Shown: one piece after another, positions 40,977 through 59,144 of the stretch
How the letters are laid out: each line of letters opens with the position of its first letter
Numbering within the stretch: the first letter of the stretch is position 1
Assembly (NCBI RefSeq): GCF_018598175.1
Contig: NZ_JAHESE010000025.1
Coordinates: 1-64,000, forward strand
From: Dawidia cretensis
GTDB taxonomy: Bacteria; Bacteroidota; Bacteroidia; Cytophagales; Cyclobacteriaceae
Length of the DNA: 64,000 bases
Direction of reading: 5' to 3'
Made by a program: the position numbers and the translations under genes
The notes under the pieces: generated by a model
Databases searched by the model: none
Told to the model about the DNA's origin: nothing
Seen by the model: the letters and a program-made list of their open reading frames with translations, nothing else

Positions 40977-40984
40977 AGCAGGTA

Positions 40985-41911
40985 TTACTCGGCTACTTGT
41001 ATATAACGATGGCCTTCATCATCCTGCTGGCGATCCTTCAGATTGACCGCAATCCCAAGTTTCTCCAGCTGGTTGCAAACTTCTTCTGAAATAAAATGAT
41101 AATGAAGATCGAGCAATTTCAGTTTGCCGATGGCAGGGCTTTGCAGCAGCGCTTTGGCACCATCGTCCCCCAGCGTACCCATCGATAAATCGAGCACGTC
41201 CAATTGATTGACGATCGGCGCCGTACTGAGCGCCCTGGCAAGGTCATCTGCGATCACGCTGTCGCGCAGCCCGAGGTAGCGCAGCCTGGTGAAATTAGCG
41301 CCCTGGAATACGGAATCAAAATCGGCTGCCGTGGAACCAAAACCATATTCATCAGAACCGAGCCATAGCTCCAGGTGCTCCAGATTAGGCAGATGGGCGC
41401 TCACCACTTCCGTGACAACGCCGGGCGGTAGGCCACCCGTTTCAATAATCAGATGTCGTAAGCCTGTATGTTGTAGCGATTTTCCCAGACTCAGCTCATT
41501 GCCGCCGCGTACGCGGAAATACTCCAGGGCAGGATAAGCCTTCAACACTGCGCTAAGGTCGCACTGGTTGATCCAGGAGATCTCATATTCTTCATACGTA
41601 ATATCGCCAATAAACAAGGACTTCAATTTGGGAAGCTTCGGCGCCGCGTCGACAAGCGCCTGGGCGATCGCCGACGTATCCCCACCTTCAAAATCGAATG
41701 CACCAATGATGAGCTCTTCCACCTGGCCAGCGTTGGCATCCTGGATGAAGTCACCAATCATGTCGGGGATGTTTTTTCCGTCTTCGAAGCCGTCATAATC
41801 TAACCGCAGGCGGTATACGGTAGATTCCAGGTTGCTAATGCCGGTCTGGGCATCGAAATCCTTCACGGACTTGCCGTTCAGGGTGGTAAGGTTATCAGAA
41901 ATCATAGACAA
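40985..41911 (-). CDS. Leucine-rich-repeat protein, STM4015-like; first gene of the cassette
   Basis: Repeated LxxLxLxxN/D segments: LKSLFIGD, LEHLELWLG, LRYLGLRDS, LDVLDLSMG, LKLLDLHYH. Confidence 0.55.
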   Translation of the reverse strand: MSMISDNLTTLNGKSVKDFDAQTGISNLESTVYRLRLDYDGFEDGKNIPDMIGDFIQDANAGQVEELIIGAFDFEGGDTSAIAQALVDAAPKLPKLKSLFIGDITYEEYEISWINQCDLSAVLKAYPALEYFRVRGGNELSLGKSLQHTGLRHLIIETGGLPPGVVTEVVSAHLPNLEHLELWLGSDEYGFGSTAADFDSVFQGANFTRLRYLGLRDSVIADDLARALSTAPIVNQLDVLDLSMGTLGDDGAKALLQSPAIGKLKLLDLHYHFISEEVCNQLEKLGIAVNLKDRQQDDEGHRYIQVAE

Positions 41912-42598: not shown

Positions 42599-43525
42599 TT
42601 GAAACCTCCCATGAACACCAGGCTTCAACGATTCGCCCAGCTGGTTTTTTACGGTAATTATTTTTACGGAGTTTGTGCCGTCTCCTTAATTCTGGAAACT
42701 TCAGCACTCCTAAAAATTCCGTTTCAAGGATCCCTGTTCTATGCGATCGCGTTTGTCGCCACCGTGCTTTTTTATAATTATCCATACGCCCGGAATTACT
42801 CCTCCCCCAGCACAAATCCTCGAACAGCATGGTATATCGCCAATCATAGTCTGATCGTTAAAACACAAATAGCACTGACTCTGCTTTTGATTATCCTTAT
42901 TGCCTCGGTGCTGATCAATTACTTCCACGAATTTGAGAACATGAGTAATCTGCAATGGCTTCTATTTCTCATTTTTCCCATGATCGGAGCAATGTATTAT
43001 GGTGCCAACTTCTTTTCCGCCCGGTATAATCTTCGAAGCATCGGTTGGCTCAAACCTTTTCTGATCGGGTTTGTGTGGGCGGGGGTAACAACAATCTACC
43101 CGTTCGAATACCACGATGTACTAAATTCCACGCACCATCCGGTAACAATTTTAGAAATATTGTTATTCCTGAAGAATCTCATGTTTATATCGATGGTTGC
43201 CATCTTGTTCGACATTAAAGACTACGCATCCGATAGCAGCAGCCATTTGAACACAATGGTGGTAAAAATCGGGTTACGAAAAACAATCCTCTTCGTTGTG
43301 TTTCCATTAACGATCCTGGGCGTGCTTACCTTTCTATCCTATGCCCTTGTTCATCAGTTCAGCCTCCTCAAAATGATCCTGATTATGATCCCGTTTTTCC
43401 TGTTGATCATCGTGGCACGATCGTTAAAACGAAGAAGGTCGCTGATGTATTACCTCGTGGCGATTGATGGCCTTTTGGTTGTAAAAGCCGCTTTTGGAAT
43501 TCTTGCCGCGATGGTTACTTCATAA
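42599..43525 (+). CDS. Polytopic membrane protein, possibly a UbiA-like prenyltransferase
   Basis: About 8 TM helices and an aspartate-rich FDIKDYASD loop that loosely resembles UbiA NDxxDxxxD. Confidence 0.4.
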   Translation: MKPPMNTRLQRFAQLVFYGNYFYGVCAVSLILETSALLKIPFQGSLFYAIAFVATVLFYNYPYARNYSSPSTNPRTAWYIANHSLIVKTQIALTLLLIILIASVLINYFHEFENMSNLQWLLFLIFPMIGAMYYGANFFSARYNLRSIGWLKPFLIGFVWAGVTTIYPFEYHDVLNSTHHPVTILEILLFLKNLMFISMVAILFDIKDYASDSSSHLNTMVVKIGLRKTILFVVFPLTILGVLTFLSYALVHQFSLLKMILIMIPFFLLIIVARSLKRRRSLMYYLVAIDGLLVVKAAFGILAAMVTS

Positions 43526-43844: not shown

Positions 43845-44278
43845 CTGATTCAACGTCCCGCCTAAACACATCTCGCGAGCTCAGAAAAACGACCGAATCG
43901 TCCCCAAGCCCCCCGGGAATCTCTCCTGGAAGTGAAATCTTTCCTGGTTCTTTCACATGTAAAGGGATAATCGCGTCTCGAAGCCAAAAATAGACGTAAC
44001 ACATTGTCAATCAGCATATATAAGACATTAAACGGAAAAATCGTCATCCTTGCGTTACTTCTACTCTAAATCGCCGCAAAATCCAAAACAACAAATTGAC
44101 AATCAATTCATTAACAGGAAAAATAAGCACGCTATTAGGGACTTCGCATGACTTGTTGCACTATAGTGTGTACCGTGTCAAACGACCTCAACGACCCTCC
44201 GAACAAAGCCAGAACAAGAACGGAAATGATCCTTTTTTTTTATTTTGTCTCCAAAACCATCGAGTAAGGACCCAAAGA

Positions 44279-46843
44279 ATGACAGAGCAAAGAGGCGAAG
44301 GAAGTTTCTTTCGGAATTTTAAAGCTATGCTTTCACTGATAAAATCATACTGCTATATATTTCTGGTATTTGGTTTTATGCCACTGCAAGCCACCTCGCT
44401 GGGCGGCTTAAAGTTTCATGGCAGTGAACAATCGATCGATCAGCGCACGTCCTACAATGTATTTGGCGATAAGGCGGTCGAATTTTCAGACAACATGATC
44501 ATTGAATTTGATCTGTCACTGTACACCACCACCCGCATCGGATACATCATCCGGATCAAAAACAATGAAAGCAACCGAATCTATAACCTGTTCTACGACG
44601 CGCAGGGCGACAACCTCGTCTTCAAATTCAATGAAGAAGGCAAATATAGCCTGATCGTTGCCACCCTCAACGAAGAAGAATTGCTAAACCTCCCCTGGTT
44701 TAAAATGAAAATCGCATTCGACCTCAAAAGCGATTCCATCTACCTGACGATCCATAACCAAACGTTCAGCGCCGCCAACGAGCTGCCCGATACCTATCAT
44801 CCTACGATTCTCTTCGGCAAAAGCGATCACATTATTGATGTGCCGTCCTTTGCCATTAAAGACCTTTCCGTCGGCGATAAAGAACGGTACTTCTTTCCAC
44901 TAAAAGAAAGCAAAGGCGACGTGGTGCACGACGCCAATGGCAAAGTCTTTGGCCAGGTCTCTAACCCGGAATGGTTGATGAACGATGCCTACCACTGGCG
45001 CTATAAAACCGGCTTTAAATCAAAATCAGTCGCGGGCGCCAACTATAATCCGGAAGAGAAAGAAATATACTACTTCAACCGCGACTCCCTGTGGCTCTAC
45101 AACGTGCGCTCCGGAGAAACGAACATACAGGTCTTTGGAGAAAAATGCCCGGTGGAGCTGGTCCTGGGAACCAACTTTATCGACACGAAGAAAAACAGGC
45201 TATATTCCTACGAAACCTACTATGCGCCTCCCCGCGACAATTACACCGGCCCCACGGTAGCCAGCCTCGACCTGACTACCTACCAATGGACTGCCGAAGA
45301 TTCCGGCCAGCTCATTAGCCCACTCCACCATCACGGCGCGTACTTCGACTCTACTACCGCGCAATACACCATCTTCGGAGGCTTTGGCAAGATGCATTAC
45401 AGCAATACATTCTTTGCCTACGATCTGAACAAACAGGCGTGGGACACCCTGGACGCCTTTTCGGGAGACTTTTTATCGCCGCGTTATTTTTCCTCTGTCG
45501 GATACCTCAAAAAGAACAACTCCATTTACGTCTTTGGCGGCATGGGCAACGACTCCGGCGAACAGACTGTCGGAAGAAAATATTATTACGACCTCTATAA
45601 AATAGACCTGACCACCCGCCGCGTCTCCAGGCTTTGGGAGATTCCCTGGGAACAGGATAATGTCGTGCCGGTACGAGGCATGGTTGTACTCGACGACTCC
45701 TCCTTTTATACCCTCTGCTATCCTGAACATTTTTCTGAATCGTTCCTCAGGCTCTATCAATTCTCATTAAAAGACGGAAGCTATAAAATACTGGGCGACT
45801 CTATCCCGATATATTCTGACAAGATCACAACAAACGCCAACCTTTATTACGATGGCAGCCTGAACAACCTGTATGCGGTCGTCCAGGAATTTGACGACGA
45901 TATCTCTTCCGACCTGAAGATATATTCCCTGGCGTTCCCTCCTATTACGGCCGACGAGCTGGCCAGCTATTCACGCGAAAAAAATAATTACGCAGTCATT
46001 CTTGCGCTTGTGTCATTATTAGCCGTTGGCGGCGCCTATGTTCTCTTCAAAAAGCAGCAATCCAGGCTCAGCAATACGGAGGATGAAACCCAAAATCTAT
46101 ACATTGATACGGACAAGCCCGAACCGGTAACGACGCAGCCGAACGCTATTTATCTCTTTGGAGAATTCACCGTACGCGACCGAAACAATCGTGACATCAC
46201 CTATATGTTCAGCGCGCAACTGAAGCAGATCTTCTGTCTTATACTACAGTACACTATAACTGAAGACGGCATCGCGTCACAGCGACTCAGCAACATACTC
46301 TGGCCTGACAAGCCGGCGGATAAAGTAAAGAACTCCCGCGGCGTTTCCATCAATCACTTACGCAAAGCGCTAAGCGAATTGGATGGAATAGAGCTCCTCT
46401 ATGACAAAGGCTTTTTCAAAATAGAGCAAACCGGAAGCTTCTACTGCGACTACACGCGATGCATCGAAATCATCTCCGCCAACGAAGTGGACACACGCCG
46501 TGACGAGCTGATTGAAATCATTTCCCGTGGCAAGTTCCTGCAACTTTCCGATCACGCCTTATATGATTCCTTTAAAGAAGAAGTAGAAAAGAAACTGGAA
46601 CCGGTACTATCACTGGAAATGGAAAAGAGCTTCGACGCCGAGCTTTATCTCACAACGATCGCTTTTGCCGAGGCCATCACCAATATCGATCCGTTAAATG
46701 ACGCCGCGCTGACTTTCCAGATCAAAGCGATGCAACGATTAAAAATGAACGATGAAGCGCGAATCCGGTACCAGGCTTTTGTGATCGACTATAAAAAGGC
46801 GATGGGGAATGATTATCCCCACCCCTTTAAAAGCCTAACGTAA
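44279..46843 (+). CDS. One-component transmembrane transcriptional regulator: extracytoplasmic LamG-like + Kelch/beta-propeller sensor, single TM helix, cytoplasmic OmpR/SARP-type winged-helix DNA-binding domain
   Basis: Signal-like MLSLIKSYCYIFLVFGFMPLQA; LamG-like block; repeated Kelch-like Y..GG...W blades; TM helix AVILALVSLLAVGGAYVLF. C-terminal IYLFGEFTVRDRNNRDI...LKQIFCLILQY...LWPD matches trans_reg_C-type winged helices. A Bacteroidota -7 box TATTTTG at 44241 supports the 44279 start; the ORF track begins at 44096. Confidence 0.6.
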   Translation: MTEQRGEGSFFRNFKAMLSLIKSYCYIFLVFGFMPLQATSLGGLKFHGSEQSIDQRTSYNVFGDKAVEFSDNMIIEFDLSLYTTTRIGYIIRIKNNESNRIYNLFYDAQGDNLVFKFNEEGKYSLIVATLNEEELLNLPWFKMKIAFDLKSDSIYLTIHNQTFSAANELPDTYHPTILFGKSDHIIDVPSFAIKDLSVGDKERYFFPLKESKGDVVHDANGKVFGQVSNPEWLMNDAYHWRYKTGFKSKSVAGANYNPEEKEIYYFNRDSLWLYNVRSGETNIQVFGEKCPVELVLGTNFIDTKKNRLYSYETYYAPPRDNYTGPTVASLDLTTYQWTAEDSGQLISPLHHHGAYFDSTTAQYTIFGGFGKMHYSNTFFAYDLNKQAWDTLDAFSGDFLSPRYFSSVGYLKKNNSIYVFGGMGNDSGEQTVGRKYYYDLYKIDLTTRRVSRLWEIPWEQDNVVPVRGMVVLDDSSFYTLCYPEHFSESFLRLYQFSLKDGSYKILGDSIPIYSDKITTNANLYYDGSLNNLYAVVQEFDDDISSDLKIYSLAFPPITADELASYSREKNNYAVILALVSLLAVGGAYVLFKKQQSRLSNTEDETQNLYIDTDKPEPVTTQPNAIYLFGEFTVRDRNNRDITYMFSAQLKQIFCLILQYTITEDGIASQRLSNILWPDKPADKVKNSRGVSINHLRKALSELDGIELLYDKGFFKIEQTGSFYCDYTRCIEIISANEVDTRRDELIEIISRGKFLQLSDHALYDSFKEEVEKKLEPVLSLEMEKSFDAELYLTTIAFAEAITNIDPLNDAALTFQIKAMQRLKMNDEARIRYQAFVIDYKKAMGNDYPHPFKSLT

Positions 46844-46903: not shown

Positions 46904-49108
46904 TCACCAACTCAGCTTCACGTGAACGCCGTCGGGATTGTTTTCAAAACTCAGGAAACAGGTCTTACTCGCAGCATCCCAGGATGTCTTTGATTCAACC
47001 AATTTTCCAGCGGCATCCGTTACCTTTATTTCCTTTGCCTTCGCCGGTAAAAGCACCCGCATCACATTGGTTGTGTTCAACGGGCTCATGGCAACAAAAG
47101 TATAGGAGCTCCTGGTAATCTTTTCGTCGTAAACACGTGCGGCTGCGGCCAGTACCTGCGGTGTCTTCGGATTCTTGATACTGCCTATATTAAACAAAAG
47201 TGCCTGCTCACCCGGGTTCACCTGCTTTTGATCTAAAACAGGGATTTCCGGATCGAACAGATCGATCAGCTTGCCTTTCAGGGTATACGGAGATTGATCG
47301 GCATTTTCATCTACCACGGAAATAATTTCGTAAGGCCCGCGCGTCAGGGCGAAGTGGTTTTTATACTTCAGCACGCCACCACCCGCTTGTGTTTCGTATA
47401 GCTTCTTAACCGTATTGACAAACGCGTCATCGCTGTTTGCCTTCAAAACAAACTCTTTCGGGTCGTTGCGCAGAATAACAACCTTTCCCTTTCCGTAGGT
47501 ATATTCTCCCGCCGGGAAAGGCTCTTTCAAACCGAGTGTTTTAAATAAATGCTCGGACGGCGCTTTGAAGGTATTCCCATCCGTATTCCACCACTCTTGT
47601 ACACGTTGAAAAGGATCCTCATCTCTGCCACTGTATAGCAAGACCCCACCATTCTTCACCCACTCGGCAATATGACCATGCGCATTCTTGTCCATGGGCT
47701 TCATATTGGAGTAAGACATGATCAGGATCTTGACGTCCTTCCAGGTTTGAGGGAACGACACATTCTCGATGTGTACCGTTTTAACCGGAACACCCCGCTT
47801 CAATAACGGAAGCGCCTGTCCATAAAAATTGGCCAGCTGTGGATCTTCATAGCCACTGTGTGTGGGAAACCGCTGAAACATCAGCGAGTTGCTCATCAGA
47901 ATACCGATACCTTGCGAACCGTTCACCTTGTTCTGCGACAACGGCATGTTGTTCAGGGTATTGATCATAACCTGCATTTGCGTAGAATAGAAACGAGGGA
48001 TCTGCTCCTTTTTATCGCTGTTTGCGCTGGTGCGATAAAGGCCCTGGTATATCCGGTCCGGCCAGGGCATTACTTCATAATCGGCAATCATCGGGTACAG
48101 CAGCTGTGCCGTAAATGTGGCCTGGTAATTTTTCTTGTAGTCCGCCCAGTCGCGTGGCCAGTCTTCAATCGGATCCGTCAGGAAAAACATCTTTCTGCCG
48201 GTAGGCGCCGTCATAGATTCCATGGAGCCATACTCCAGGAATGCCGTTTCAAATACACGCTCTTTTTCACGACCATTAAAATAATTGGGCTCGCGCGACG
48301 TGCCCGTCCATACCTGTGCAATGTAGCCGTCCACGCAGGGCAACGATGCCAGGCTCGCTTCGGGACTCACGATCATCCACTGCGAATAATTTACCAGCGA
48401 ATGGGTCGGCACGTAACAGCGCACATTCATGCCTTTGGTTTTACCATACTCCTTGGCGTAGGTGAAACATTCGTTCAACGCCCGGTAGTACAGGTGATAT
48501 TTTAACTTGTTAGACAAGTAGGTGTTTTCCGGCGACTCGTGCTGTGGTCTCCAGTCAAACCCGTAATATTCTTTCCATTCTTTTTTGAACGCAGTGCTGT
48601 AGCCCGATCGGGCCCAGAACTCCGGCTCCTCCAGGAAGATCGCGTCGATCCCCGCATCGATCACGCGCTTGATTACCGCCTCCTTCATATACTTGATGAA
48701 GTTCAGCGACGGCACGATGTACGGCACCAGCCGACCGTGCCACAGGGTATCGCCCTTTTGAGTAACCTGGCCTTCATCGAGATGCCATTTGCCATCCCAC
48801 TTGCCGGTAAAATAATCCTGGTATTCACCCCAGGCTATGCCGGTCATAAAATGTGTCTTGTAACCTTTGTCGCGCCAGCTTTGTACGCGCTCCTCAAAGG
48901 TCATGCTGCCTTTACCATGATGCTCCTTCACGCTGTAAACAATCGCAACATCGGCCCGCACGTCGGTCACGGGCTTCCAGGGATTGGAAGTTTGAAATAC
49001 GGTCTTTTCGCCGGGCAGACTGGCAGGCCGCTGCTCCGGTTGCTGAGACTGAGAAAACGCTTGAACAGAAAACGTTACGAAAAGATAAAATAGAATCGAC
49101 TTACGCAT
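46904..49108 (-). CDS. Secreted putative glycoside hydrolase, last gene of the PUL
   Basis: Signal peptide MRKSILFYLFVTFSVQAFSQ. 734 aa, aromatic-rich. No firm GH family could be assigned from sequence. Confidence 0.45.
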   Translation of the reverse strand: MRKSILFYLFVTFSVQAFSQSQQPEQRPASLPGEKTVFQTSNPWKPVTDVRADVAIVYSVKEHHGKGSMTFEERVQSWRDKGYKTHFMTGIAWGEYQDYFTGKWDGKWHLDEGQVTQKGDTLWHGRLVPYIVPSLNFIKYMKEAVIKRVIDAGIDAIFLEEPEFWARSGYSTAFKKEWKEYYGFDWRPQHESPENTYLSNKLKYHLYYRALNECFTYAKEYGKTKGMNVRCYVPTHSLVNYSQWMIVSPEASLASLPCVDGYIAQVWTGTSREPNYFNGREKERVFETAFLEYGSMESMTAPTGRKMFFLTDPIEDWPRDWADYKKNYQATFTAQLLYPMIADYEVMPWPDRIYQGLYRTSANSDKKEQIPRFYSTQMQVMINTLNNMPLSQNKVNGSQGIGILMSNSLMFQRFPTHSGYEDPQLANFYGQALPLLKRGVPVKTVHIENVSFPQTWKDVKILIMSYSNMKPMDKNAHGHIAEWVKNGGVLLYSGRDEDPFQRVQEWWNTDGNTFKAPSEHLFKTLGLKEPFPAGEYTYGKGKVVILRNDPKEFVLKANSDDAFVNTVKKLYETQAGGGVLKYKNHFALTRGPYEIISVVDENADQSPYTLKGKLIDLFDPEIPVLDQKQVNPGEQALLFNIGSIKNPKTPQVLAAAARVYDEKITRSSYTFVAMSPLNTTNVMRVLLPAKAKEIKVTDAAGKLVESKTSWDAASKTCFLSFENNPDGVHVKLSW

Positions 49109-49218
49109 GGGACTATATACTCTTTGTTAAAGGAAAGAAGGTCATGACTGTCGGCAAGCCGTCTAAACAGCTTACTATACCATGACCTTCTTATTATCAT
49201 TCCAGAGAGGGTCGAATC

Positions 49219-50034
49219 TTACGGAACCAGCACTTGCTTGGCTTCATTATAGTTCCATCTTCTCGTGCCGCTACCTTTGGGCGTATCATAGTTGATCCGC
49301 GCCGCAGCCCGAACAAAGACAGCCCTTCCCGAAGGAATCGCACCGACCGATTCAATGGTTACGATCTCGCCTAACAACCCGCTAAAAGCCGACCCTGCGT
49401 ATTCGATCTTGCTGGACCAACGCTCATCACGTGCACGATATCCTACGCTGGAAGAATAGCTGACGAATAGCTGAATATCCGTTACATCTTGAAAGTTCGA
49501 ATTATAACCGCCCATCGGCTCGATCTTCGCACGAAAATCATCTTCCGATACGCCACGCGTAACGCGCACTTGCGCTCTAACCTTACCGTTGATTATTTGA
49601 GGCTCTCCCACCCACTCTATGTTCAGGAAAGGCTGCACCTCAAAGGTTACCTTCGTCAGGTCGCTGATCTCCTTCGTTTGGGTTTCGTCGGCCAGTGGCG
49701 TGCCGCGGTCGTCCTCGCGAAGCAAGGGAATAAACGGACCATCGACACGGATGTTATACGTACCACCAAAGATCTTGGTATTTTGGAAGGTACCGTCGGG
49801 CTTGCAGAAGAAGTCAGGGTTTGGCTGTACGTTTTCGCCGTAGCTGAGCTCCAACAGGCGCACGCGAATACCTTCGCTTCCCTGGTCGGTCAGCACCGGC
49901 GCGCCGCTTTCGGCGTCAATCACTTCGCCTTGAATCGTGGCCGAAGGCTCGTCTTTGTTATCCAGCTCAAACAGCCCGCAGGAGCTGAGCGAGAGCAGTG
50001 CGAACGACACGATGTATAATGATATCTTTTTCAT
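49219..50034 (-). CDS. PUL-associated lipoprotein (DUF3823-like)
   Basis: Lipoprotein signal MKKISLYIVSFALLSLSSC. Directly downstream of SusD, as is typical for DUF3823 proteins. Confidence 0.45.
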   Translation of the reverse strand: MKKISLYIVSFALLSLSSCGLFELDNKDEPSATIQGEVIDAESGAPVLTDQGSEGIRVRLLELSYGENVQPNPDFFCKPDGTFQNTKIFGGTYNIRVDGPFIPLLREDDRGTPLADETQTKEISDLTKVTFEVQPFLNIEWVGEPQIINGKVRAQVRVTRGVSEDDFRAKIEPMGGYNSNFQDVTDIQLFVSYSSSVGYRARDERWSSKIEYAGSAFSGLLGEIVTIESVGAIPSGRAVFVRAAARINYDTPKGSGTRRWNYNEAKQVLVP

Positions 50035-50070
50035 GTTCGTAATTCTTAAGTATTGGCAATTCATGATTCC

Positions 50071-52131
50071 CTATCGGTTTGGTTGCTGGTCAATGACCGC
50101 ACTCTTCGATACCTCACCGCTCGGGATCGCAAAGTAATAATCCACGACGTTATACTCGAACGTCTTCTGGGCCACCCATTGGAAGTGAGCATCGAAGAAA
50201 TATTTGCCGGTTTGAGAAGAGAGGAACGGATACAAACCACGGAATTTATAGCGCGAGTTGTTGCTGAACAATTCTTTCTCCCGCTCTTCGCCCCAGAAAA
50301 GATCGCGCGCTTCGTAGTGATTCACTCTCCAACGACGCAGATCCCATTTGGCTTTGTGCTCCATCGCCAGTTCTTTGCGCCGTTCTTTCCGAACAATGTT
50401 ACGACCTTCGTCACTACCCGCGACACTTCCAACTAACGGATTCGCTCCCGCGCGCTCACGAATGGCAGCAATCGCCTCCGTAGCAGTTTGCAGCATGTCC
50501 GATCCGTCCGGCGAAGGCTCGCCCGCCAGGGTCAGCTCCACGCCGGCTTCTGCCGCGTTCAACAATACCTCTGCATAACGCATCAGGACGTAGGGTTGTG
50601 CTGACTTGCCTTCCGCCGGTACAAACGCAGGATCCGGATTCAGCCATTTGCGGCCCAGAAGACCAGTGAGACATCCTTCGCCGTTGTTGTAGAATGGGCC
50701 ATTCTCGCCGGCAGCCGTCGTGGGCACACCGCTGACGGGCACGATCTCCTGGTCGGTTAATTCCCGCGGGCTGAGGTACAGCGACTTGGGAGTTCCCGTG
50801 TATTGAGTCAGCTGTTGATAATGTCTTTCAGCATTGCCATAGGAATAATCCGTAAACAGGGGGTTGATCGGTGCAGCACCGGTATAGATTCCCGCGCGGA
50901 TTTCAATATCCCGGCTCTTAAACTGATCACCCGGAAAGATTACATAAGCACGCAGACGTGGCTCGGCATTTTTGAAGAAATCCATCGGCGTATCGTACAG
51001 CACATACGTTCCTTCGTTGTTCCTATCACCCGTAGTAACCTTGATCGTACCGTTGGGATAACGGGGAAAACCGTCAAACAGCTCGACAAAATCCAGTGTC
51101 GGACAGGTGCCCGATGCCAGCGGCGATTTGAAGATATACGGTGAGTTGTACGCGTCATAGGCGTGTGTAGAGATCGGATACGTATACTCCCGTGCATAGA
51201 TCGTCTCTGTGCTGCTCAGGTCCGAGAACATATCCACCATGTTCTGATATTGTGCTGCTTTGTCGTTGGCAGCCCACTTTTTCTTGTACAAAGAGTATTT
51301 GTTGCTTTTAATCACTTCCTGGGCGGCCAGATACGCTTCGCGGAAATACTTGCGCGAGGCCGATTGCCAGGTATTCGGATCAAAGCCCATAACCCGCACG
51401 TTGGTTTTCAAACCCATACCGGTAAGGCGGCCGGGAACAGTCTCATTGTACTTCGCCACGCTCCCCGCATACAACATCGCTTCCGACTTGAAAGCCAATG
51501 CCACATATTTATTAGAGTACCCTCTTTCAATGTCAGGGTTTGTCGTGCGCAGCAAAGAGATTGCCTGATCGTAGTCGGCAAGCACCTGGTCCCAGGTCTC
51601 TTCCTCCGTCGAACGCGCTATCTCCGGATTCTCATCATTCGGATATTTGATCACGCGTGTCACAAGGGGGACACCGCCGAAGCGGCGGGCCATCGCATAG
51701 AACGCGGTAGCGCGTGCGTAGTAGGCCTCTCCCAGATAATGATTGTACGTGATCTCCGGGAATGATCCCTTGTACTCCGGCAATGTCTCGATCAGGTAGT
51801 TCGCATCGCGGATCAACACAAAAGCATCTTTCCAGTACGCAGTCCGCTCACTGGTAAACGCGCGGCAGATACCATCGCGGTTCACAGCTTCACCGGTACC
51901 TTCGATACCCGAGGCGTTCAACCAGCCGTTGTACTCCATGCCCCACTCACCCATATACTTGAAGTCCTCGAACGGCATCCGGCTATACATCCGCGCCAGA
52001 TACACTTTCATACCCGACTCATTCGTCAGCAGGGTCTCGTCGCCTATCACATTTTTCGGCGGAATGTCCAGTTCCGTACATGCGGACACACAGAACGCTC
52101 CGATCAATAGTAATATATATATCCTATTCAT
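50071..52131 (-). CDS. susD: RagB/SusD-family nutrient-binding outer membrane lipoprotein
   Basis: Lipoprotein signal with Cys, TPR-like SusD architecture, and the SusC gene immediately upstream. Confidence 0.9.
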   Translation of the reverse strand: MNRIYILLLIGAFCVSACTELDIPPKNVIGDETLLTNESGMKVYLARMYSRMPFEDFKYMGEWGMEYNGWLNASGIEGTGEAVNRDGICRAFTSERTAYWKDAFVLIRDANYLIETLPEYKGSFPEITYNHYLGEAYYARATAFYAMARRFGGVPLVTRVIKYPNDENPEIARSTEEETWDQVLADYDQAISLLRTTNPDIERGYSNKYVALAFKSEAMLYAGSVAKYNETVPGRLTGMGLKTNVRVMGFDPNTWQSASRKYFREAYLAAQEVIKSNKYSLYKKKWAANDKAAQYQNMVDMFSDLSSTETIYAREYTYPISTHAYDAYNSPYIFKSPLASGTCPTLDFVELFDGFPRYPNGTIKVTTGDRNNEGTYVLYDTPMDFFKNAEPRLRAYVIFPGDQFKSRDIEIRAGIYTGAAPINPLFTDYSYGNAERHYQQLTQYTGTPKSLYLSPRELTDQEIVPVSGVPTTAAGENGPFYNNGEGCLTGLLGRKWLNPDPAFVPAEGKSAQPYVLMRYAEVLLNAAEAGVELTLAGEPSPDGSDMLQTATEAIAAIRERAGANPLVGSVAGSDEGRNIVRKERRKELAMEHKAKWDLRRWRVNHYEARDLFWGEEREKELFSNNSRYKFRGLYPFLSSQTGKYFFDAHFQWVAQKTFEYNVVDYYFAIPSGEVSKSAVIDQQPNR

Positions 52132-52166
52132 ATATAATTCAGATTATAACTCGTAAGTCTTTAACA

Positions 52167-55100
52167 TTAAAATTTGGCCGATAAACCTACCGTATACGTT
52201 TTGTTTAGCGGGTACAACCGTCCCAGGTCGCTATCCGGGTGCTCCGGATCGACAAACTTGACATCCGTGATCGTAAACACGTTGTAAGCGTTGGCAAACA
52301 CACGCACGTCCAGTGATGACAATATCCGCTTCGGCAATGTATAGCCGAGCTCAATGCTCTTCAGACGCAGGTAGGCGGTGCTCACACGGTTGAATTCCGA
52401 GTTATCACGCGGATAGTGCCCGGTGTAACCATAGTAGCCACTAGCCCATTCCGTGCTGGGATTATACGGATCAGCCTTCGGGTCAACCGGGTGCCAGCGA
52501 TCGAGGTATTGCTCCAGCGCACCACCACCATTGCTACCCCAGATGCGGTAAAGCGGTTCTTGATACGCCATCGATCCCATCGCTGTACCCTGGAAAAGGA
52601 AGTTCAAATCGAAGCTCTTGTAGTTAAAGTCAGCCCCTAAGCTGAAGTTCAACCAGGGTGTCTGGTCAAATGCAAACGGGTGTTGGTCCTGATCGTTGAT
52701 CTCGCCATCGCCATTCCAATCTTCGTATTTGTAGTCCCCGGGCAAAATGTCGCGGTCTTTGTAAATCGGGTAGTTCCAGATATCCTCCCAGTTCTGATAA
52801 CGTCCGGCAGACTCGAAGCCGAACTGTACACCTTGATAGCGGTTGTTCAGGTTGTCGTTACGCCATTTATCATACGAGTTTGCATAGGGCCCATTGGCGG
52901 CTCCAAACAGCCACTCTCTACGCGTAATGGTAGCAATAGCCCGTACCTTGTAGGAGAGGTCACCAATCTTGTTACGGTGATTGAGCTCCAGATCCAAACC
53001 GTATTGACGCTCTCTGTCCAGGTTTTCAACCGGCGCGTCGGTACCTACGATAGTAGGAATTTCGCTGGAAAGTTTCGTATGGAGTCCGGTCCGTTTACGT
53101 TGGAAATAATCTAACGAAAAACCGAACAAACCGTTCCAGCCTTCATAATCCACACCTACGTTGAAAGTTTGTGCTTCCCACCAGGTTAACTCACTATTAT
53201 TCACGATTACGTCTGCACCGTTAATAAACTGGCCACCGAACACATTGCCAGGAGCCCATTGATTATAATAGCCGTTCGCCGCGTTCGAGTTGGTGGACGG
53301 ATATTTATACCCCGGATACCAATCATATCCCAATGTACCGTCATTCGATGTTACACCGTAGCTTGTACGAAATTTCAACTGGTCAACAAACGACAGTGCC
53401 GAAATATTTTGGAAGAAGGGTTCTTCCGATATACGCCAGGCAACCGATCCTGAAGGGAAGAAACCCCACTGATTATCTTCGACAAATTTCGAAGAACCGT
53501 CATACCGGAACTGGAACTCGGCAATGTAGCGATCCTTGTGCGTAACGTTCACCCGTCCAAGCGCAGCGGCATTGGCAATCTCATAAAGGTCGCCGGTAGT
53601 AGAGCCCATCCCGCTGACCATGCCCGCGTCATTTACACCCGCGAGCAAATACGGCAGCCCAAAGGCAAGGTTCCGACGTGCGAAGAAATTGTCACCGGTT
53701 TTATTCTGGCTCTCCCAGCCTAAAAGGCCTACGAACTTCGTTTCACCGAATGTGCGGCTATAATTCACCAGGAATTGACCTAACCACTGCCGTCTCTCCG
53801 ACATATCACGCTGCAGCTGATTGGGCGAGCTCAGGTTATACAACTTGGAAACATACTCACCCGATAAAGGGTCCATCGCATACTGAAAGTACTCACGCCG
53901 ATAGGCCGTATTGTTGTTTTGACGGTAGTCATAGCTAAACATACCTTTCACAGACAAACCTTCCAGCGCGGGTGATACCGTGCCAAGATCAAAATTGAGC
54001 GATGCAGACGACTGAAAGTCCTTCTGTTGAAACTTCCGGTATCCCGAGATATCGGACGACATCATCGCCACCGTGTTTTGTTCCAGCGCAAGGCCTTCGT
54101 AGTTCAGCATGGTGCCTTCCGGATCTGCATACGCCGGAAATAAGACACCTTGCGCCCAATAGTTCCGGATTATATCCACCGAGCTCGCGTACGGTGTATT
54201 ACGTTCGTCGGATACTCCCGCCAGGTTGATATTCAGCGACAGGCCCTTGTAAAGCTCCGTGGTAATATTGGTGCGCAGGTTATACTTCTTGTAGTTCAGG
54301 TCACCCGATTTGAATATACCCTCCTGATAGAGATATCCTCCGCCAATATAATATTGCGTATTGTCGTTTCCACCGGTGATACTGAGATCGTGTTGCGTTT
54401 GAGGCGCCGTATTCGCGATGATCAGCTTGTTCCAGTCCGTCGTCGGACGCTGTCCCGTACGGAATGCTTCGAAATCAGCCTCATCGTAGATGATGTTGCC
54501 ACCGTTGACCTGATTCATGGCCTGCTCGTTGTAGAGCGTCATGGTTCCATAGGCATCTGCAAGCTTAGGCATATTCGACGGCTTCTGTATCGTAACAGAA
54601 CCGTTGTACGTAATAATCGGCTTTCCTTTTGTACCCTTTTTAGTGGTCACCAGCATCACGCCACTCGCCGCACGCACACCGTAGATAGCCGCCGACGCAT
54701 CTTTCAGCACCGAAATATCATCGATATCGCTTGGATTCAAGCGCTGAAAGTCTTCCATCGTGCGGGGCACACCGTCGATTACGACCAGTGGATCACCCTC
54801 CATACCACGGATGTCAAAGGTCGTGTTATAGGTACCTGGTTCAGCGCTTTTCTGCCAGATCCGCACACCCGCCACACGACCGGTAAGCATGTTCTGCGGG
54901 TTTTCATTTTTGGTCCGGCGCAGCTCGTCACCTTTAATCGCGGCCACAGAGCCGGTCAGGTTAACTTTTTGCTGTGTACCATACGCCACGACCACAACCT
55001 CGCCCAGTTGCGTAATATCAGAAACCAGGGCCACGCTGATGTTGGTTTGTGCACCCACCGTAACCTCCTGCTGGACATAGCCGATAAACGACAGGACCAG

Positions 55101-55406
55101 CACGTCTTCGCCGCTCGCAACATTGATCACAAACTTGCCATCGGCATCCGTGGTGGTACCACGGTTTGTGCCTTTGACAACCACGCTCACACCCGGTAAG
55201 CCTGTTCCGTCATCCGACGACGTGATGGTACCCGTTACGGTAATGCCCTGAAACGGCAAAGTCGTTGTCACGGCGGTTGCATGTATATTTTTTACGTCGT
55301 TTGCTTCCGATGCAAAAACAGAAGCAACAAGAACGCACTGAGCGGCTATTCCGAAGGCGGAATACTTCAGTAGTTTCTTTGATAATGATTTGTAGTTATT
55401 CTGCAT
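52167..55406 (-). CDS. susC: SusC/RagA-family TonB-dependent outer membrane transporter
   Basis: Carboxypeptidase-regulatory-like N-terminal domain, TonB plug and 22-strand barrel signatures, and the terminal ...GLSAKF. Confidence 0.9.
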   Translation of the reverse strand: MQNNYKSLSKKLLKYSAFGIAAQCVLVASVFASEANDVKNIHATAVTTTLPFQGITVTGTITSSDDGTGLPGVSVVVKGTNRGTTTDADGKFVINVASGEDVLVLSFIGYVQQEVTVGAQTNISVALVSDITQLGEVVVVAYGTQQKVNLTGSVAAIKGDELRRTKNENPQNMLTGRVAGVRIWQKSAEPGTYNTTFDIRGMEGDPLVVIDGVPRTMEDFQRLNPSDIDDISVLKDASAAIYGVRAASGVMLVTTKKGTKGKPIITYNGSVTIQKPSNMPKLADAYGTMTLYNEQAMNQVNGGNIIYDEADFEAFRTGQRPTTDWNKLIIANTAPQTQHDLSITGGNDNTQYYIGGGYLYQEGIFKSGDLNYKKYNLRTNITTELYKGLSLNINLAGVSDERNTPYASSVDIIRNYWAQGVLFPAYADPEGTMLNYEGLALEQNTVAMMSSDISGYRKFQQKDFQSSASLNFDLGTVSPALEGLSVKGMFSYDYRQNNNTAYRREYFQYAMDPLSGEYVSKLYNLSSPNQLQRDMSERRQWLGQFLVNYSRTFGETKFVGLLGWESQNKTGDNFFARRNLAFGLPYLLAGVNDAGMVSGMGSTTGDLYEIANAAALGRVNVTHKDRYIAEFQFRYDGSSKFVEDNQWGFFPSGSVAWRISEEPFFQNISALSFVDQLKFRTSYGVTSNDGTLGYDWYPGYKYPSTNSNAANGYYNQWAPGNVFGGQFINGADVIVNNSELTWWEAQTFNVGVDYEGWNGLFGFSLDYFQRKRTGLHTKLSSEIPTIVGTDAPVENLDRERQYGLDLELNHRNKIGDLSYKVRAIATITRREWLFGAANGPYANSYDKWRNDNLNNRYQGVQFGFESAGRYQNWEDIWNYPIYKDRDILPGDYKYEDWNGDGEINDQDQHPFAFDQTPWLNFSLGADFNYKSFDLNFLFQGTAMGSMAYQEPLYRIWGSNGGGALEQYLDRWHPVDPKADPYNPSTEWASGYYGYTGHYPRDNSEFNRVSTAYLRLKSIELGYTLPKRILSSLDVRVFANAYNVFTITDVKFVDPEHPDSDLGRLYPLNKTYTVGLSAKF

Positions 55407-55424
55407 ATGCTAAAGATCTTAAAT

Positions 55425-56876
55425 TCATTTTTCCAGTTGATAGCGTGCTAATACAGCGTATTCAGCGGCGTAGGTAAAATTGAACATACCCTCCGCCTGG
55501 TTTTTGCTGTTTTCACGATTCCATCCAACCAGCAAATTGGTGGGCAGATACCCCTTGTAAAAGAAGTTGTCGTAACCGTGGTCCAGGTTCTTTTGGAAAG
55601 ACTCGGCATACGTACCGGACGTGGCATAGTGCGCTGCAGTCTCTACGAAAGCGCGCATCAGCACACCGTTAAACCACGTGCTAAAACCACCGATATCATA
55701 GGTATAATAGCCGGTCTTCGTCTGGTCCAGTTTGGCAAAGTACTTGAAGCTGTCGTCCGACAATTTCTTGGCATCTTCCAGGTATGCATTATCGGTAGTT
55801 ACCCGGTACAAATCGGCTGCGCCGGAAAGCATCGAGCCGCTGTTGTACGAGTACGCAGGGCCTACGCGATCCCTGCACGTAATGCCTTTGCGATAGGTTC
55901 CGCCACCGACAGACTCTGTCTCCGGTCCGCCCGGTGTGCATCCACCCAGAAAATCATCGTATACACCTTCGCCGCGTACCAACGCTTTCTTCTGCCAGGC
56001 ATATATCTTCTTGGCAAAATCCAGGTAATAGTCGCTCTTCGTTACCTCTTCGGTCAGGCGTGTTTGTTTGTCGGTAGCGTCGATGTACCGGTGGGTGATC
56101 ACGTCGGCTTTGCCTTTGTATACCTCGTGCAGCCATACCAGCGGGCTGATCATGGGGCCGTTGCTGCAAGCGTGCTTGGTGACGTAACCCGGTCCCCAGG
56201 TAATACCACCAATCTCCGCGCCATTGGCATCCAGGGTACAATCCCAGCCATCCAGTACATACTCTGTCAAATACTCCGCTTTGTCCAGGTATTTCTGCTC
56301 GCCTGTTAGTTTATAGGCTTCGATCATTTCGCGTACGAACCACATCTGGTCATCATACACGTTGTGAATACCATCTACCTGGGCAGAGCCCTTGTCGCCG
56401 CCGCGGTCCACGCCGTACACAGACCAACTTTTGGTTTGCGTGTAAGACGTCAACTGAAACGTTCCCTTGTAGAAATCCGCATTCTCGTATAAATTAGAAA
56501 GCAGGTCCTTGTACTTGCTAAAGTTGGCATCGTACAGCGCGGAATTTCCATCGTCTTTCTGCGCTTTAAGGCCATGAAGAATAGCGTTCACCGCTTCGAT
56601 GCCGGCGGTATACATCCACACACTGCCCTTTTCATCTGAACGAGCGCTGGTATACGGATTGTAGAAACGGGCCATTGCCATGCCGTCGCCCGTAAAGTGG
56701 GCGGCGACCGTAGCGTCGGTAAGTTCCATCGCACGCTTCAGGTTTTGCTCCGGCACGTTTACATCGCCGTCCGGGTCTGTATCCGGTCCGTCATCAGATG
56801 ATGTATCACTACACGCGGCGATAATCAACAGCAATACCAGGCAGCAGGTAGTAAAAAAATTACGAAATAGTATCAT
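55425..56876 (-). CDS. Six-hairpin glycosidase lipoprotein, probably GH76 (alpha-1,6-mannanase family)
   Basis: Lipoprotein signal ...IIAACSD. A consecutive-aspartate motif NVYDDQMWF resembles the GH76 catalytic DD pair, on an (alpha/alpha)6-type composition. Confidence 0.5.
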   Translation of the reverse strand: MILFRNFFTTCCLVLLLIIAACSDTSSDDGPDTDPDGDVNVPEQNLKRAMELTDATVAAHFTGDGMAMARFYNPYTSARSDEKGSVWMYTAGIEAVNAILHGLKAQKDDGNSALYDANFSKYKDLLSNLYENADFYKGTFQLTSYTQTKSWSVYGVDRGGDKGSAQVDGIHNVYDDQMWFVREMIEAYKLTGEQKYLDKAEYLTEYVLDGWDCTLDANGAEIGGITWGPGYVTKHACSNGPMISPLVWLHEVYKGKADVITHRYIDATDKQTRLTEEVTKSDYYLDFAKKIYAWQKKALVRGEGVYDDFLGGCTPGGPETESVGGGTYRKGITCRDRVGPAYSYNSGSMLSGAADLYRVTTDNAYLEDAKKLSDDSFKYFAKLDQTKTGYYTYDIGGFSTWFNGVLMRAFVETAAHYATSGTYAESFQKNLDHGYDNFFYKGYLPTNLLVGWNRENSKNQAEGMFNFTYAAEYAVLARYQLEK

Positions 56877-56896
56877 GATATAATCCCCTCTTTCTT

Positions 56897-58717
56897 TTAT
56901 TTTATTTCGATCTGGCGGATAGACAATTTATTCTCGCCAGAGTTTTCAACAACATTGTATACCCCCAAAACAAGGGTTACATCTTCGCCATTGAATTGTG
57001 ACAAGTCGTATTCGAATTTGGCATAATCAACCAGTGCGTTATCACCGGCTTCATGTTTGAATTTCCAAAGTCCATCGGCCTCAGCGCTGGCGTCATCGCC
57101 ATTCACAGCAAACGAGGAAGGTTCAAGATGTGTAACCGTACCGTTGTTTTGTACTGCGCTGACCTTAAAGTATGTATAGCTGCCGTCGTAGGTGCGTGCA
57201 TGCAACGTCAGTAAATTACTACCGGAGGCGATGGAAAACTTTGCATAGAGGTGAGCGTCCGGAACCACCGTGCTCGTGGTATTGTCGCTAACGGTCTTGA
57301 TGACATAAACTTGTCCTCTAAACGGTTCGGCATCCTTCCTGACCGGGACCAGAGACCAGTTTGCTCCCAGGTGATTTGTCTCGCGCCATTCGCGGTATCC
57401 AGCAATATAATGATCACGGTTCTGATCAGCAGTAGCGGTGCGTCCTGTAAAAACCTTTTTCGTTTGGGGCATCGTAGAGCGAACAGCCTCTAGAGGTAAC
57501 TTCCATCCAGGAACAACATCAGCACCCGGCAGCCATTCCCAGCTAACGAGCTTGCGGGTAGAAAAACGAATCGCCCGAAGAACAAATTGTTTCCAATAAT
57601 CGCCCGTAGCCGCACGATAAGTTCCAATGGCAATAACGACCTCTTTCCCTACATAAGCACTCAGGTCGAAGTCGAAGTCCTGATAGGCTTCCGAATTCAA
57701 TCCTTTGGTTTCACCGATTTTGACAGCGACAGGTTCTGCGGCTGAAAGGTCGATCACTTGTACACCCCACACAGTTGGAGCCGCATCCGAGGCACTGTGC
57801 GTACGTACGCGCAACGACATGATTTTATTATCGTCGGTAATCATTTTGCTACCGAATACAAACGAGTCGAATACATCCAAATCAGCCGGATTCGCGCGCT
57901 CCGCGTCACTGTTGCGGATTTGTAGTGTCGTACCCTCGTTCTGCTCTTCCCAGGCACCGCGGAAGTCAAGCGTTCCCATGTAGTTGGTCGACCAGTCCCA
58001 GTGTGGGTAAGAGTCGCCGTTACGGCCGCCACGATATTCGTTGTAGTACCATTTGTCAGCCGATCTCAAATCGTCAGCCGTCAACCCGCGCAACACATCT
58101 CTCCCGCCCATCCGGATGTCAGCTGTAGCGATGCCGGTAGCAACATCAAAGTCCGCTTTCGCAACGGCCTTTGTCACGGATACATAATTTGCTTTGCTGT
58201 AGGTTACCGTGTAATTGTCGGCAATCAGGTTCTCGATGGTGAATTTGCCATCACTACCGCTGGTAGCTGTACCGGCAACACCTACCGTAACCGTTACTCC
58301 TTCCAGCGGAGCATCGTTATTACGGGCATCGGTAATCGTACCGGTAATCACCTTCGACGCGTCCAGCATCATCACGTCCACGGTCGCCCGTTTGTTTTCG
58401 TCAAAGTCGCCGGCATCAACGCTCACGCTGGTGCGCAACAGTTTCGTCTTGGAGAACGTCACAGCATGCAGTTTCATCGACACGCCGTCTACGCTGAATT
58501 TTCCGTTGGCATCGGTCGTCAGGACGATATCCTCCTCCTTAATGCCGGAAATGGTCACCGTAACGTCGGGAATGGTTTGCCCATTCTCACCCGTAACGGT
58601 GCCGGAAATGGTCCCTAAAGAGGTTGTTGGGGCATCGTCATCCTTACAGGAGCCGAACGACACAGCGAATGCCCCCAGCAAAACAACGTACCGTAAGAAT
58701 TGTAAAGCTTTACTCAT
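56897..58717 (-). CDS. Surface glycan-binding lipoprotein (SGBP-like), first gene of the PUL
   Basis: Lipoprotein signal ...SFGSCKDD. Two carboxypeptidase-regulatory-like Ig domains (TGTITD...GVTVTVG...GKFTIENL). PUL leader position. Confidence 0.5.
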   Translation of the reverse strand: MSKALQFLRYVVLLGAFAVSFGSCKDDDAPTTSLGTISGTVTGENGQTIPDVTVTISGIKEEDIVLTTDANGKFSVDGVSMKLHAVTFSKTKLLRTSVSVDAGDFDENKRATVDVMMLDASKVITGTITDARNNDAPLEGVTVTVGVAGTATSGSDGKFTIENLIADNYTVTYSKANYVSVTKAVAKADFDVATGIATADIRMGGRDVLRGLTADDLRSADKWYYNEYRGGRNGDSYPHWDWSTNYMGTLDFRGAWEEQNEGTTLQIRNSDAERANPADLDVFDSFVFGSKMITDDNKIMSLRVRTHSASDAAPTVWGVQVIDLSAAEPVAVKIGETKGLNSEAYQDFDFDLSAYVGKEVVIAIGTYRAATGDYWKQFVLRAIRFSTRKLVSWEWLPGADVVPGWKLPLEAVRSTMPQTKKVFTGRTATADQNRDHYIAGYREWRETNHLGANWSLVPVRKDAEPFRGQVYVIKTVSDNTTSTVVPDAHLYAKFSIASGSNLLTLHARTYDGSYTYFKVSAVQNNGTVTHLEPSSFAVNGDDASAEADGLWKFKHEAGDNALVDYAKFEYDLSQFNGEDVTLVLGVYNVVENSGENKLSIRQIEIK

Positions 58718-58781: not shown

Positions 58782-59144
58782 TATCGATTGCGGGATGGTT
58801 GCTATCGATTGCAAATTGTACCGAGTTTACCAGTCAGGTGGTTAAAGAATGGGTTAAAACCGGGTTAATGGAGGGAAAAAAATCGTTAATCTGCGATTTT
58901 GGCCACTTTTGCTGTTTGCGGTTGAAGAAATATTTTTGAGCCTAACAAGGGAAATTAAGCGCCGTACACAGCGGCGCACACAGAGACAGATATCTTCAGC
59001 TAAACCGATTTATGAAGCGTTCAGCAAACGTTTGGGAAGGCGCTCCCGACAAGCGTGTTGGAGCAAGGTTATTAACCCGGTTTTCAACGCCAGCTAATAC
59101 GCTGAAAATCAAAAAGTAAAACCACATTAACCCGTAGTTAATGG
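58782..59144. promoter_or_regulatory. PUL upstream region dense in repeats: TATCGATTGC x2 (21-bp spacing), GGTTAA x3 at 11-13 bp spacing, an inverted 12-mer pair AACCGGGTTAAT / ATTAACCCGGTT, and the palindrome ATTAAC-N6-GTTAAT
   Basis: Read directly from the sequence. TATCGATTGC at 58782 and 58803. GGTTAA at 58839, 58852 and 58863. 12-mers at 58858-58869 and 59071-59082. Palindrome at 59127-59144. Confidence 0.4.

Follow-up and report, generated by a model that had tools for sequence, protein, structure and literature searches.

In a 64,000 nt stretch of DNA from Dawidia cretensis (positions 1 to 64,000, forward strand, of contig NZ_JAHESE010000025.1, assembly GCF_018598175.1), here called the window, a gene at 44279..46843 on the + strand lies next to a polysaccharide utilization locus (PUL) that includes genes for SusC, SusD and a protein of family GH76. 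We conclude that its product is probably a phosphorelay-free activator of this PUL, in which the sensor would detect an oligosaccharide of the substrate and output modules of the Streptomyces antibiotic regulatory protein (SARP) type, sitting on direct repeats, would recruit RNA polymerase. An earlier note on this DNA had proposed a regulator that signals from membrane to DNA within a single polypeptide, and this proposal is upheld: a β-sandwich and a Kelch propeller are predicted on the periplasmic side and a winged helix-turn-helix (wHTH) on the cytoplasmic side, no phosphorelay domains were found in Pfam searches, and the gene is linked to GH76 and SusCD.

The open reading frame (ORF) of the regulator ends at 46843 and encodes 854 aa when read from the ATG at 44279; residue numbers given here refer to this 854-aa protein. 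The longest ORF opens at a TTG at 44096 (915 aa), a start that was rejected because homologues do not reach that far. As most homologues begin 9–16 residues inside the 44279 start, the ATG at 44327 (M17, 838 aa) is the likelier start. Apart from the ORF list and the homologue N-termini, the extent of the gene is supported by end-to-end homology to BT3853 of Bacteroides thetaiotaomicron, described below.

Hydropathy analysis revealed two hydrophobic segments, one at aa 17–38 and a stronger one at aa 571–590. The first, MLSLIKSYCYIFLVFGFMPLQA (44327..44392, +), has the character of a Sec signal peptide, as had been predicted, and in a set of 101 full-length family representatives (50%-identity clusters) the corresponding segment is above threshold in 73, with signal-peptide-like N-termini in many of the others too. 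In these representatives the signal peptide typically ends with ..AQG or SQG, directly before a conserved GL+F.G..I..RTSY motif. Such an end fits cleavage by signal peptidase I and the preference of Bacteroidota for Gln at position +1. The second segment, YAVILALVSLLAVGGAYVLF (45989..46048, +), reaches a Kyte-Doolittle peak of 2.49, is followed by KKQQSR and represents a single transmembrane (TM) helix that is found at the equivalent position in 101/101 representatives. The earlier note had also expected one TM helix but had placed it at about residue 640, a position that holds only when counting from the TTG at 44096. From the signal peptide and the single TM helix, the protein is therefore predicted to have an N-out/C-in topology, with ~530 periplasmic residues, one membrane pass and ~265 cytoplasmic residues. 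The latter begin with a poorly conserved linker (aa 591–622; 46049..46144, +; 16% pairwise identity) that varies from 20 to 68 aa across the family. In Pfam searches at E <= 1, neither the window protein nor any of 29 orthologues contained a HisKA, HATPase_c, Response_reg or HTH_AraC domain.

When the whole regulator was searched against Pfam and NCBIfam, Kelch alone was matched and the N- and C-terminal domains returned no match. An AlphaFold2 (AF2) model of aa 615–854 (predicted local distance difference test score, pLDDT, 88.3) displays a β-β-α-α-α-β-hairpin arrangement followed by seven or eight helices. The model contains an OmpR/PhoB-type wHTH (aa ~623–721; 46145..46441, +) with the recognition helix KVKNSRGVSINHLRKAL, and a BTAD-like helical (TPR-like) domain (aa ~722–854; 46442..46840, +). 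It structurally matches AfsR and EmbR over both wHTH and BTAD, and not over the TPR part alone, and the OmpR-family DNA-binding domains of PhoP, DrrB, PmrA and TcpP were independent matches. When a profile built from 95 family sequences was used to query the PDB sequences, AfsR was returned with E 0.0018 and consensus TPR proteins with E 6e-7, while queries with the single protein or with a shallow C-terminal profile yielded nothing useful. Pfam BTAD matched weakly in 5/29 orthologues (best E 0.034), the window protein was not matched by Trans_reg_C or BTAD at the curated threshold, and PF03704 is precomputed for a few distant homologues only. A GerE-type HTH was not matched in the window protein or in the 29 orthologues. 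As modelled, the output is a SARP-type module, with an OmpR-type wHTH directly followed by a BTAD, and is closest to AfsR and EmbR. A C-terminal winged helix had been anticipated in the earlier note, and both the AF2 model and the AfsR profile match agree with it, but the output is not a bare winged helix, as the fused BTAD makes it a SARP module.

The ectodomain consists of an N-terminal β-sandwich (aa ~39–238; 44393..44992, +) and a six-bladed Kelch β-propeller (aa ~239–556; 44993..45946, +), both predicted to be periplasmic. In the AF2 model of aa 38–568 (pLDDT 78.9), the β-sandwich is followed by 24 strands that form six four-stranded blades, and Pfam Kelch families match aa ~269–502 of the window protein (E 1.6e-15), so the propeller named in the earlier note is secure. 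The same note called the N-terminal domain LamG. A β-sandwich fold is indeed seen in the AF2 model, but the assignment to a LamG/concanavalin-like type is weak: Laminin_G_2 and Laminin_G_3 match 4/45 and 3/45 diverse family members, respectively (7/45 together; best E 3.4e-4), and no Pfam LamG model matches the window protein or the close orthologue set. With a profile of the domain, the thrombospondin N-domain was reached at a weak E of 0.065, and the lipocalin matches of this profile are probably spurious. In Foldseek searches, the ectodomain model gave long two-domain alignments to muskelin, Vibrio cholerae neuraminidase and a galactose oxidase homologue. V. cholerae neuraminidase combines lectin domains with a propeller. 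Structural matches of the Kelch part include LZTR1, KLHDC2/3, KLHL12 and Keap1, and also YjhT/NanM and fucose lectins.

The regulator gene is convergent with a tightly packed operon of six genes on the − strand (46904–58717), which confirms that it flanks a PUL, as had been stated. The first gene of the operon (56897..58717) encodes a 606-aa protein with CarboxypepD_reg-like domains in Pfam, a possible surface glycan-binding protein that is syntenic in many loci. It is followed by genes for the GH76 protein (α-1,6-mannanase family; 55425..56876; PF03663, E 1.5e-17; also syntenic), a SusC-like TonB-dependent transporter (52167..55406) with Plug and CarboxypepD_reg domains, for which the Pfam domain search reported no STN domain, and a SusD-like protein (50071..52131; SusD_RagB, E 2.4e-34). 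The last two genes encode proteins of no known family: a syntenic 281-aa protein (49219..50064) without a Pfam or NCBIfam match, and a secreted 734-aa protein (46904..49108) without a match in Pfam, NCBIfam or the PDB sequences. Across the orders that have the GH76/SusCD operon, the 734-aa protein is 63–96% identical and the 281-aa protein 37–88%. The 734-aa protein, which has a predicted signal peptide, is a candidate for a new glycan-active enzyme family.

In a comparison of the PUL proteins with 80 related loci (tblastn), synteny was conserved in about 60/80. Most of the loci have these genes no more than 10 kb from the regulator, and the PUL proteins are 50–90% identical, even between orders. 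The regulator and the same PUL genes occur together in Cytophagales, Marinilabiliales, Dysgonomonas, Alistipes, Prevotella, Proteiniphilum and Sphingobacterium. Two layouts were found. The convergent one of the window is that of Cytophagales, while Bacteroidales and Marinilabiliales have a divergent PUL whose start lies 150–600 bp upstream of the regulator gene. More distant paralogues adjoin other SusCD loci, with GH92, GH29, GH2 and F5/8-type C genes. As paralogues lie beside different PULs, the family appears to be a general class of PUL regulators. Located 3′ of the last PUL gene, and inside the last codons of the regulator, is a hairpin that resembles a terminator and has a T-run (46801–46823, − strand), so the two transcription units would overlap at their 3′ ends. 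A + strand gene 20 kb from the PUL (21095–24037) has a 980-aa product in which GxGYxYP domains are combined with CBM6/CBM35 and a type IX secretion system C-terminal sorting domain; the gene lacks the repeats described next. GxGYxYP is a putative glycoside hydrolase family that is also present in PUL69 of B. thetaiotaomicron.

The regions upstream of the first PUL gene share TTTAACCC, which resolves into three direct TTAACC(C) repeats. In the window, this candidate operator, TTAACCCGGTTTTAACCCATTCTTTAACC, is at 58840..58868 (−), 123–151 bp before the ATG of the first PUL gene, and its repeats are spaced by 11 and 12 bp. A GATTAAC at 58885..58891 (−), 21 bp before repeat 1, is possibly a fourth, degenerate repeat and corresponds to a TTAAY element in related sites. 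Reading the sequence downstream, we found a candidate Bacteroidota -7 promoter box, ACAATTTG, at 58812..58819 (−). The triple repeat is unique in the window even when three mismatches are permitted (0.04 expected). In 1.54 Mb, made up of the window and the 80 related loci, there are 47 matches, whereas twenty first-order Markov shuffled versions of the same 1.54 Mb contain 1.8 on average and 5 at most. All but two or three of the 47 are intergenic, directly beside the regulator gene and pointing into the neighbouring operon, and this position is independent of whether the operon begins with the 606-aa gene, GH76, the 734-aa gene, SusC or a 770-aa gene. A second copy of the operator, for example upstream of the regulator or of the GxGYxYP gene, was not found in the window, and there is thus no sign of autoregulation.

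Anchoring of the sites gave the consensus gaTTAat-N~14-TTAACCC-N4-TTTAACCCa-N4-TTAACC-N13/14-TTTG. A TTTG follows repeat 3 after 13–14 nt in 31/48 unique sites, and a TTAAY element precedes repeat 1 by 20–21 nt in 28/48. TAnnTTTG is the Bacteroidota -7 promoter element, and with TAnnTTTG as the -7 element, repeat 3 sits where a -33 element would be. SARPs typically bind direct repeats with a phasing of ~11 bp that abut or overlap the -35 region. The intergenic region of B. thetaiotaomicron PUL69 contains GGTTAATGA...TTAATCC-N4-TTAACCC...TTAACCT-N13-TTTG, inside a perfect TATGTTTG box, and the promoters beside two more distant paralogues carry the repeat architecture too. In one of those paralogue loci, no match to the repeat was reported at a SusCD pair linked to a hybrid two-component system (HTCS). 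In the Proteiniphilum loci L059, L060, L062, L063 and L065, the recognition helix, which is nearly invariant across the family, reads VKN(T/I)RNVTLNRLRK instead of VKNSRGVTINHLRK (His→Arg, Gly→Asn), and GTAACCC repeats replace TTAACCC about 150–250 bp upstream of position 10001. This joint change of helix and repeat is suggestive of protein–DNA covariation. We infer that the regulator binds the TTAACC repeats, which we regard as its candidate operator. Among the paralogue loci, paralogues with ~40% identity beside GH92/GH29/GH2 PULs are accompanied by a GGTTAAT...TTAAYC×3...TTTG architecture (L083, 7541–7600 and 13318–13375; L084, 19204–19390), and in these two loci it sometimes occurs twice, once on each side of a divergent promoter.

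When a family member from a gut Bacteroides served as the query, an 857-aa protein was returned, P0415, listed as 'hypothetical protein [Bacteroides thetaiotaomicron]'. The window protein is 37% identical to it over 840 aa, end to end (E = 0) and with the same domain order. The order of genes at the P0415 locus is regulator, DUF4972/LamG_3 protein, SusC, SusD, GxGYxYP (BT3857) and GH92 (BT3858). The GxGYxYP genes BT3857 and BT3859 and the GH92 gene BT3858 have been placed in PUL69, BT3853–BT3862, and as the gene order matches that of PUL69, P0415 is BT3853. According to a 2025 preprint (bioRxiv 10.1101/2025.07.13.664583), a PUL69 promoter reporter depends on BT3853, called 'Sensor PUL69', for its response to α-mannan, and none of the di- and trisaccharides tested induces this reporter. 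Thus, the coupling of regulator to PUL that the earlier note had proposed is supported by a homologue, for which the preprint reports a requirement in α-mannan-dependent PUL69 transcription. BT3853 is not mentioned by Cuskin 2015. Another B. thetaiotaomicron protein, BT3957 (the 'unique sensor class' of PUL71), was considered as a homologue and rejected, as it is described with receiver and HTH domains that are absent in the window protein.

Like the window regulator, BT3853 adjoins a SusCD PUL for α-mannan (PUL69, also MAN-PUL3). That PUL includes GxGYxYP, GH92 and, according to the paper, GH99, whereas the window PUL has GH76 and two proteins of unknown family. The BT3853 gene is co-directional with and adjacent to its PUL, while the window regulator is convergent and the promoter is 12 kb away, and the hosts are a gut member of the Bacteroidales and a soil-type member of the Cytophagales related to Parachryseolinea, respectively. 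Since there is genetic evidence for BT3853, and the homology to it spans the full length, the window gene joins a known kind.

When the C-terminal 240 residues were used to query 1.84 billion representatives, 1,166 clusters (50% identity) were returned at E <= 1e-3 and 958 at E <= 1e-10. Complete members are nearly all 800–896 aa long and have the same layout, with the module at the C-terminus, and every organism label seen was Bacteroidota. Close orthologues were found in 249 GTDB species, including Cytophagales, Marinilabiliales, Dysgonomonas, Alistipes, Prevotella, Proteiniphilum, Sphingobacterium and Algoriphagus. The nearest, in Parachryseolinea silvisoli, shares 96% protein identity. A second homologue search with a diverse profile returned the same close orthologues again, and no paralogues of the regulator were found in the window or in the 80 related loci. 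Taking the mean pairwise identity across 95 diverse members as the measure, the winged helix is the most conserved domain (41%), followed by the Kelch propeller (33%), the N-terminal β-sandwich (30%) and the BTAD (27%), with ~15% for the TM helix and cytoplasmic linker. NCBI names for members are often 'Kelch repeat-containing protein' or 'hypothetical protein', and other source names are 'DNA-binding SARP family transcriptional activator' (IMG), 'two-component SAPR family response regulator' and 'DNA-binding transcriptional activator'. The regulator had been described in the earlier note as unusual. With 1,166 clusters, and 249 GTDB species for the close orthologue alone, this description does not hold, and moreover IMG already labels it a SARP activator and 'SARP-OmpR' is already a listed class of PUL regulators. 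The window gene is an ordinary orthologue within its family.

The following course of events would account for these observations. SusC/D would import an oligosaccharide freed from the polymer at the cell surface; the presence of GH76 and the link to BT3853 point to α-mannan as the substrate. The oligosaccharide would bind the β-sandwich and Kelch ectodomain, and the ligand would alter the oligomeric state or spacing of the sensor. As the linker varies in length and sequence, a rigid piston or rotation relay seems unlikely and control by proximity or oligomerization is favoured. Several tethered SARP modules could then occupy the three, possibly four, TTAACC(C) repeats, which lie one helical turn apart and directly precede the PUL promoter's -7 box, at the usual place of the -33 element, and the bound modules would recruit RNA polymerase with no phosphorelay.

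Several observations weigh against this account, and some of those that concern the sensor would fit a PUL regulator that does not bind glycan directly. Such a regulator could respond to a protein partner, for example a periplasmic binding protein or the state of SusC/TonB, or its SARP part could be released by proteolysis. Direct glycan binding by the ectodomain is suggested by the type of fold and by context, the LamG-like character of the N-terminal domain is tentative, and most of the Kelch propellers among the matched structures (LZTR1, KLHDC2/3, KLHL12, Keap1) are protein-interaction modules. The strongest Kelch motifs, LHHHG and GGMGNxSGEQ, are invariant across paralogues beside different PULs, so this part may serve structure or signalling and not set the specificity, and the poorly conserved, length-variable tether between TM helix and DNA-binding domain could be prone to cleavage. 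However, no conserved partner gene was found besides the PUL genes, an STN signalling domain was not reported for SusC, and sugar-binding propellers and lectin-plus-propeller layouts were matched as well (YjhT/NanM, V. cholerae neuraminidase, fucose lectins). BT3853 is treated as a glycan sensor in the preprint (bioRxiv 10.1101/2025.07.13.664583), though the domain architecture given here for BT3853 comes from our sequence alignment. On balance, indirect sensing or proteolytic release is unlikely.

Other points concern the repeats. The operator and the regulator gene are not neighbours in the window but lie 12 kb apart, and the TTTG of the window operator is 24 nt after repeat 3, about one helical turn further than in most sites, as is also the case in L079 (24–25 nt). 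One repeat consensus is common to paralogues that are only 37% identical, which would be unusual if operators were private, so either cross-talk is avoided in some way or another factor reads the repeats. As it is confined to one clade, the covariation in Proteiniphilum counts as a single evolutionary event. The repeats might then be read by another factor or be an element of promoter architecture, with the regulator binding elsewhere or acting as a repressor. Yet in about 45 independent loci they stand beside the regulator gene, no matter which gene the operon begins with, and none was reported at a SusCD pair that shares a locus with them but is under HTCS control. They are also phased and placed by the core promoter in a way that fits the SARP mode, and they change together with an otherwise nearly invariant recognition helix in one clade; we consider this alternative improbable. 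It is still less probable, to the point of being hardly credible, that the protein is not a transcription factor at all but a membrane-anchored periplasmic Kelch enzyme or lectin, such as a NanM-like mutarotase, with the TPR-like tail as a scaffold. The frequent NCBI names 'Kelch repeat-containing protein' and 'hypothetical protein', the lack of a Pfam DNA-binding model at threshold and the presence of YjhT/NanM among the structural matches would fit such a protein, but the cytoplasmic model matches AfsR and EmbR across wHTH and BTAD, the DNA-binding domains of PhoP, DrrB, PmrA and TcpP were matched independently, and the homologue BT3853 is, according to the preprint cited above, required for transcription of its PUL. 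We therefore retain a phosphorelay-free activator of the GH76/SusC/SusD PUL as the probable function of the window regulator, with an imported oligosaccharide as the presumed ligand and oligomerization as the presumed mode of activation.

The remaining genes noted in the window have other characters. A 357-aa gene of unknown function (59177–60250) lies upstream of the PUL promoter, and divergent from it is a gene for a 965-aa RHS-repeat protein (60840–63737, +). A 1,613-aa protein (24937–29778, −) with DUF3686 ('ATPase involved in DNA repair'), DUF7902 and an AAA domain is found beside a 675-aa ORF (29909–31936) without a Pfam match, and the pair might be a defence-type or repair module. Genes for two radical SAM proteins and for sulfatase-like, HAD hydrolase, ATP-grasp-like and LRR-like proteins (36185–41911, −), followed by one for a UbiA-like prenyltransferase (42599–43525, +), seem to form a small cluster for modification or biosynthesis that has no relation to the PUL.

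In a paper that cites Terrapon et al. 2015, 'SARP-OmpR' is listed as a class of PUL regulators. In the searchable literature, Kelch or SARP was tied to PUL regulation only in this one-line list, and we found there no account of the architecture, SARP nature, DNA site or mechanism of the family. The TTAACC operator candidate is new in this analysis. PUL regulation is usually explained by HTCS, SusR-like regulators and extracytoplasmic function σ/anti-σ pairs, and the present family, which controls PULs for α-mannan and other substrates, occurs at least as widely among Bacteroidota of the environment and the gut. The SARP assignment together with the TTAACC repeat provides a testable regulon marker, so PULs controlled by the family become predictable from sequence alone. 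The sensor, tether, DNA-binding domain and operator offer a handle for glycan-responsive reporters, as is already the case with BT3853 in B. thetaiotaomicron. In a more far-reaching proposal, for and against which we see about equal grounds, the family would stand beside the SusR-like and BguR-like regulators of Bacteroidota as a third, structurally distinct class of one-component glycan sensors that span the membrane: the β-sandwich and Kelch ectodomain would bind the imported oligosaccharide directly and drive SARP oligomerization onto phased TTAACC repeats that replace the -33 element, with one shared repeat code. If so, specificity would have to come from flanking bases, from the geometry of the site or from the sensor, and a SARP-type activator mechanism would be described for the first time outside the secondary metabolism of Gram-positive bacteria.

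Comparison with known regulators places the family between several systems. Like the window regulator, ToxR, CadC and TcpP are membrane-tethered proteins with an OmpR-type wHTH and no receiver or kinase; they bind DNA directly without phosphorylation, as the window regulator would. In ToxR and CadC, the cytoplasmic DNA-binding domain is N-terminal and the periplasmic sensor C-terminal. The window regulator has the reverse order, an N-terminal sensor with a signal peptide and a C-terminal DNA-binding domain; moreover, ToxR and CadC have no BTAD and their sensors are unrelated to that of the window protein. The ToxR/CadC-like signalling suggested in the earlier note is thus right in its logic but not in domain order, which is that of SusR and BguR. 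HTCS resemble the window regulator in being linked to PULs and in joining a periplasmic glycan sensor of the β-propeller type, across the membrane, to an output that binds DNA. However, they contain HisKA, HATPase_c, receiver and AraC domains and a Reg_prop/Y_Y_Y tandem, none of which is present in the window protein, with its single Kelch propeller.

The SARPs AfsR, EmbR, ActII-ORF4 and DnrI share with the window protein the succession of wHTH and BTAD, and the candidate operator, with direct repeats one helical turn apart by the core promoter, would be of their kind. In SARPs, the module is N-terminal in a soluble protein, whereas here a signal peptide, a 530-aa ectodomain and a TM helix precede it and it occupies the C-terminus, and sequence similarity between the window module and SARPs is under Pfam thresholds. 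SARPs belong to Actinobacteria and secondary metabolism, the window family to Bacteroidota and catabolism.

The closest parallels in overall layout are SusR and BguR. Both have a periplasmic sensor, a single TM helix and a C-terminal cytoplasmic DNA-binding domain, are adjacent to a PUL and work without a phosphorelay. According to the BguR preprint, such an architecture is otherwise known for SusR only. SusR-like regulators had been listed in the earlier note among the usual systems from which the window protein departs, but they are themselves membrane-spanning one-component systems, so this contrast falls away. A conserved motif is reported between BguR and the first PUL gene, as in the window family. 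The domains of the two are unrelated: BguR has an HTCS-like sensor, with tandem propeller and Y_Y_Y, and a GerE-type HTH, whereas the window regulator combines a β-sandwich and Kelch propeller with a wHTH and BTAD.

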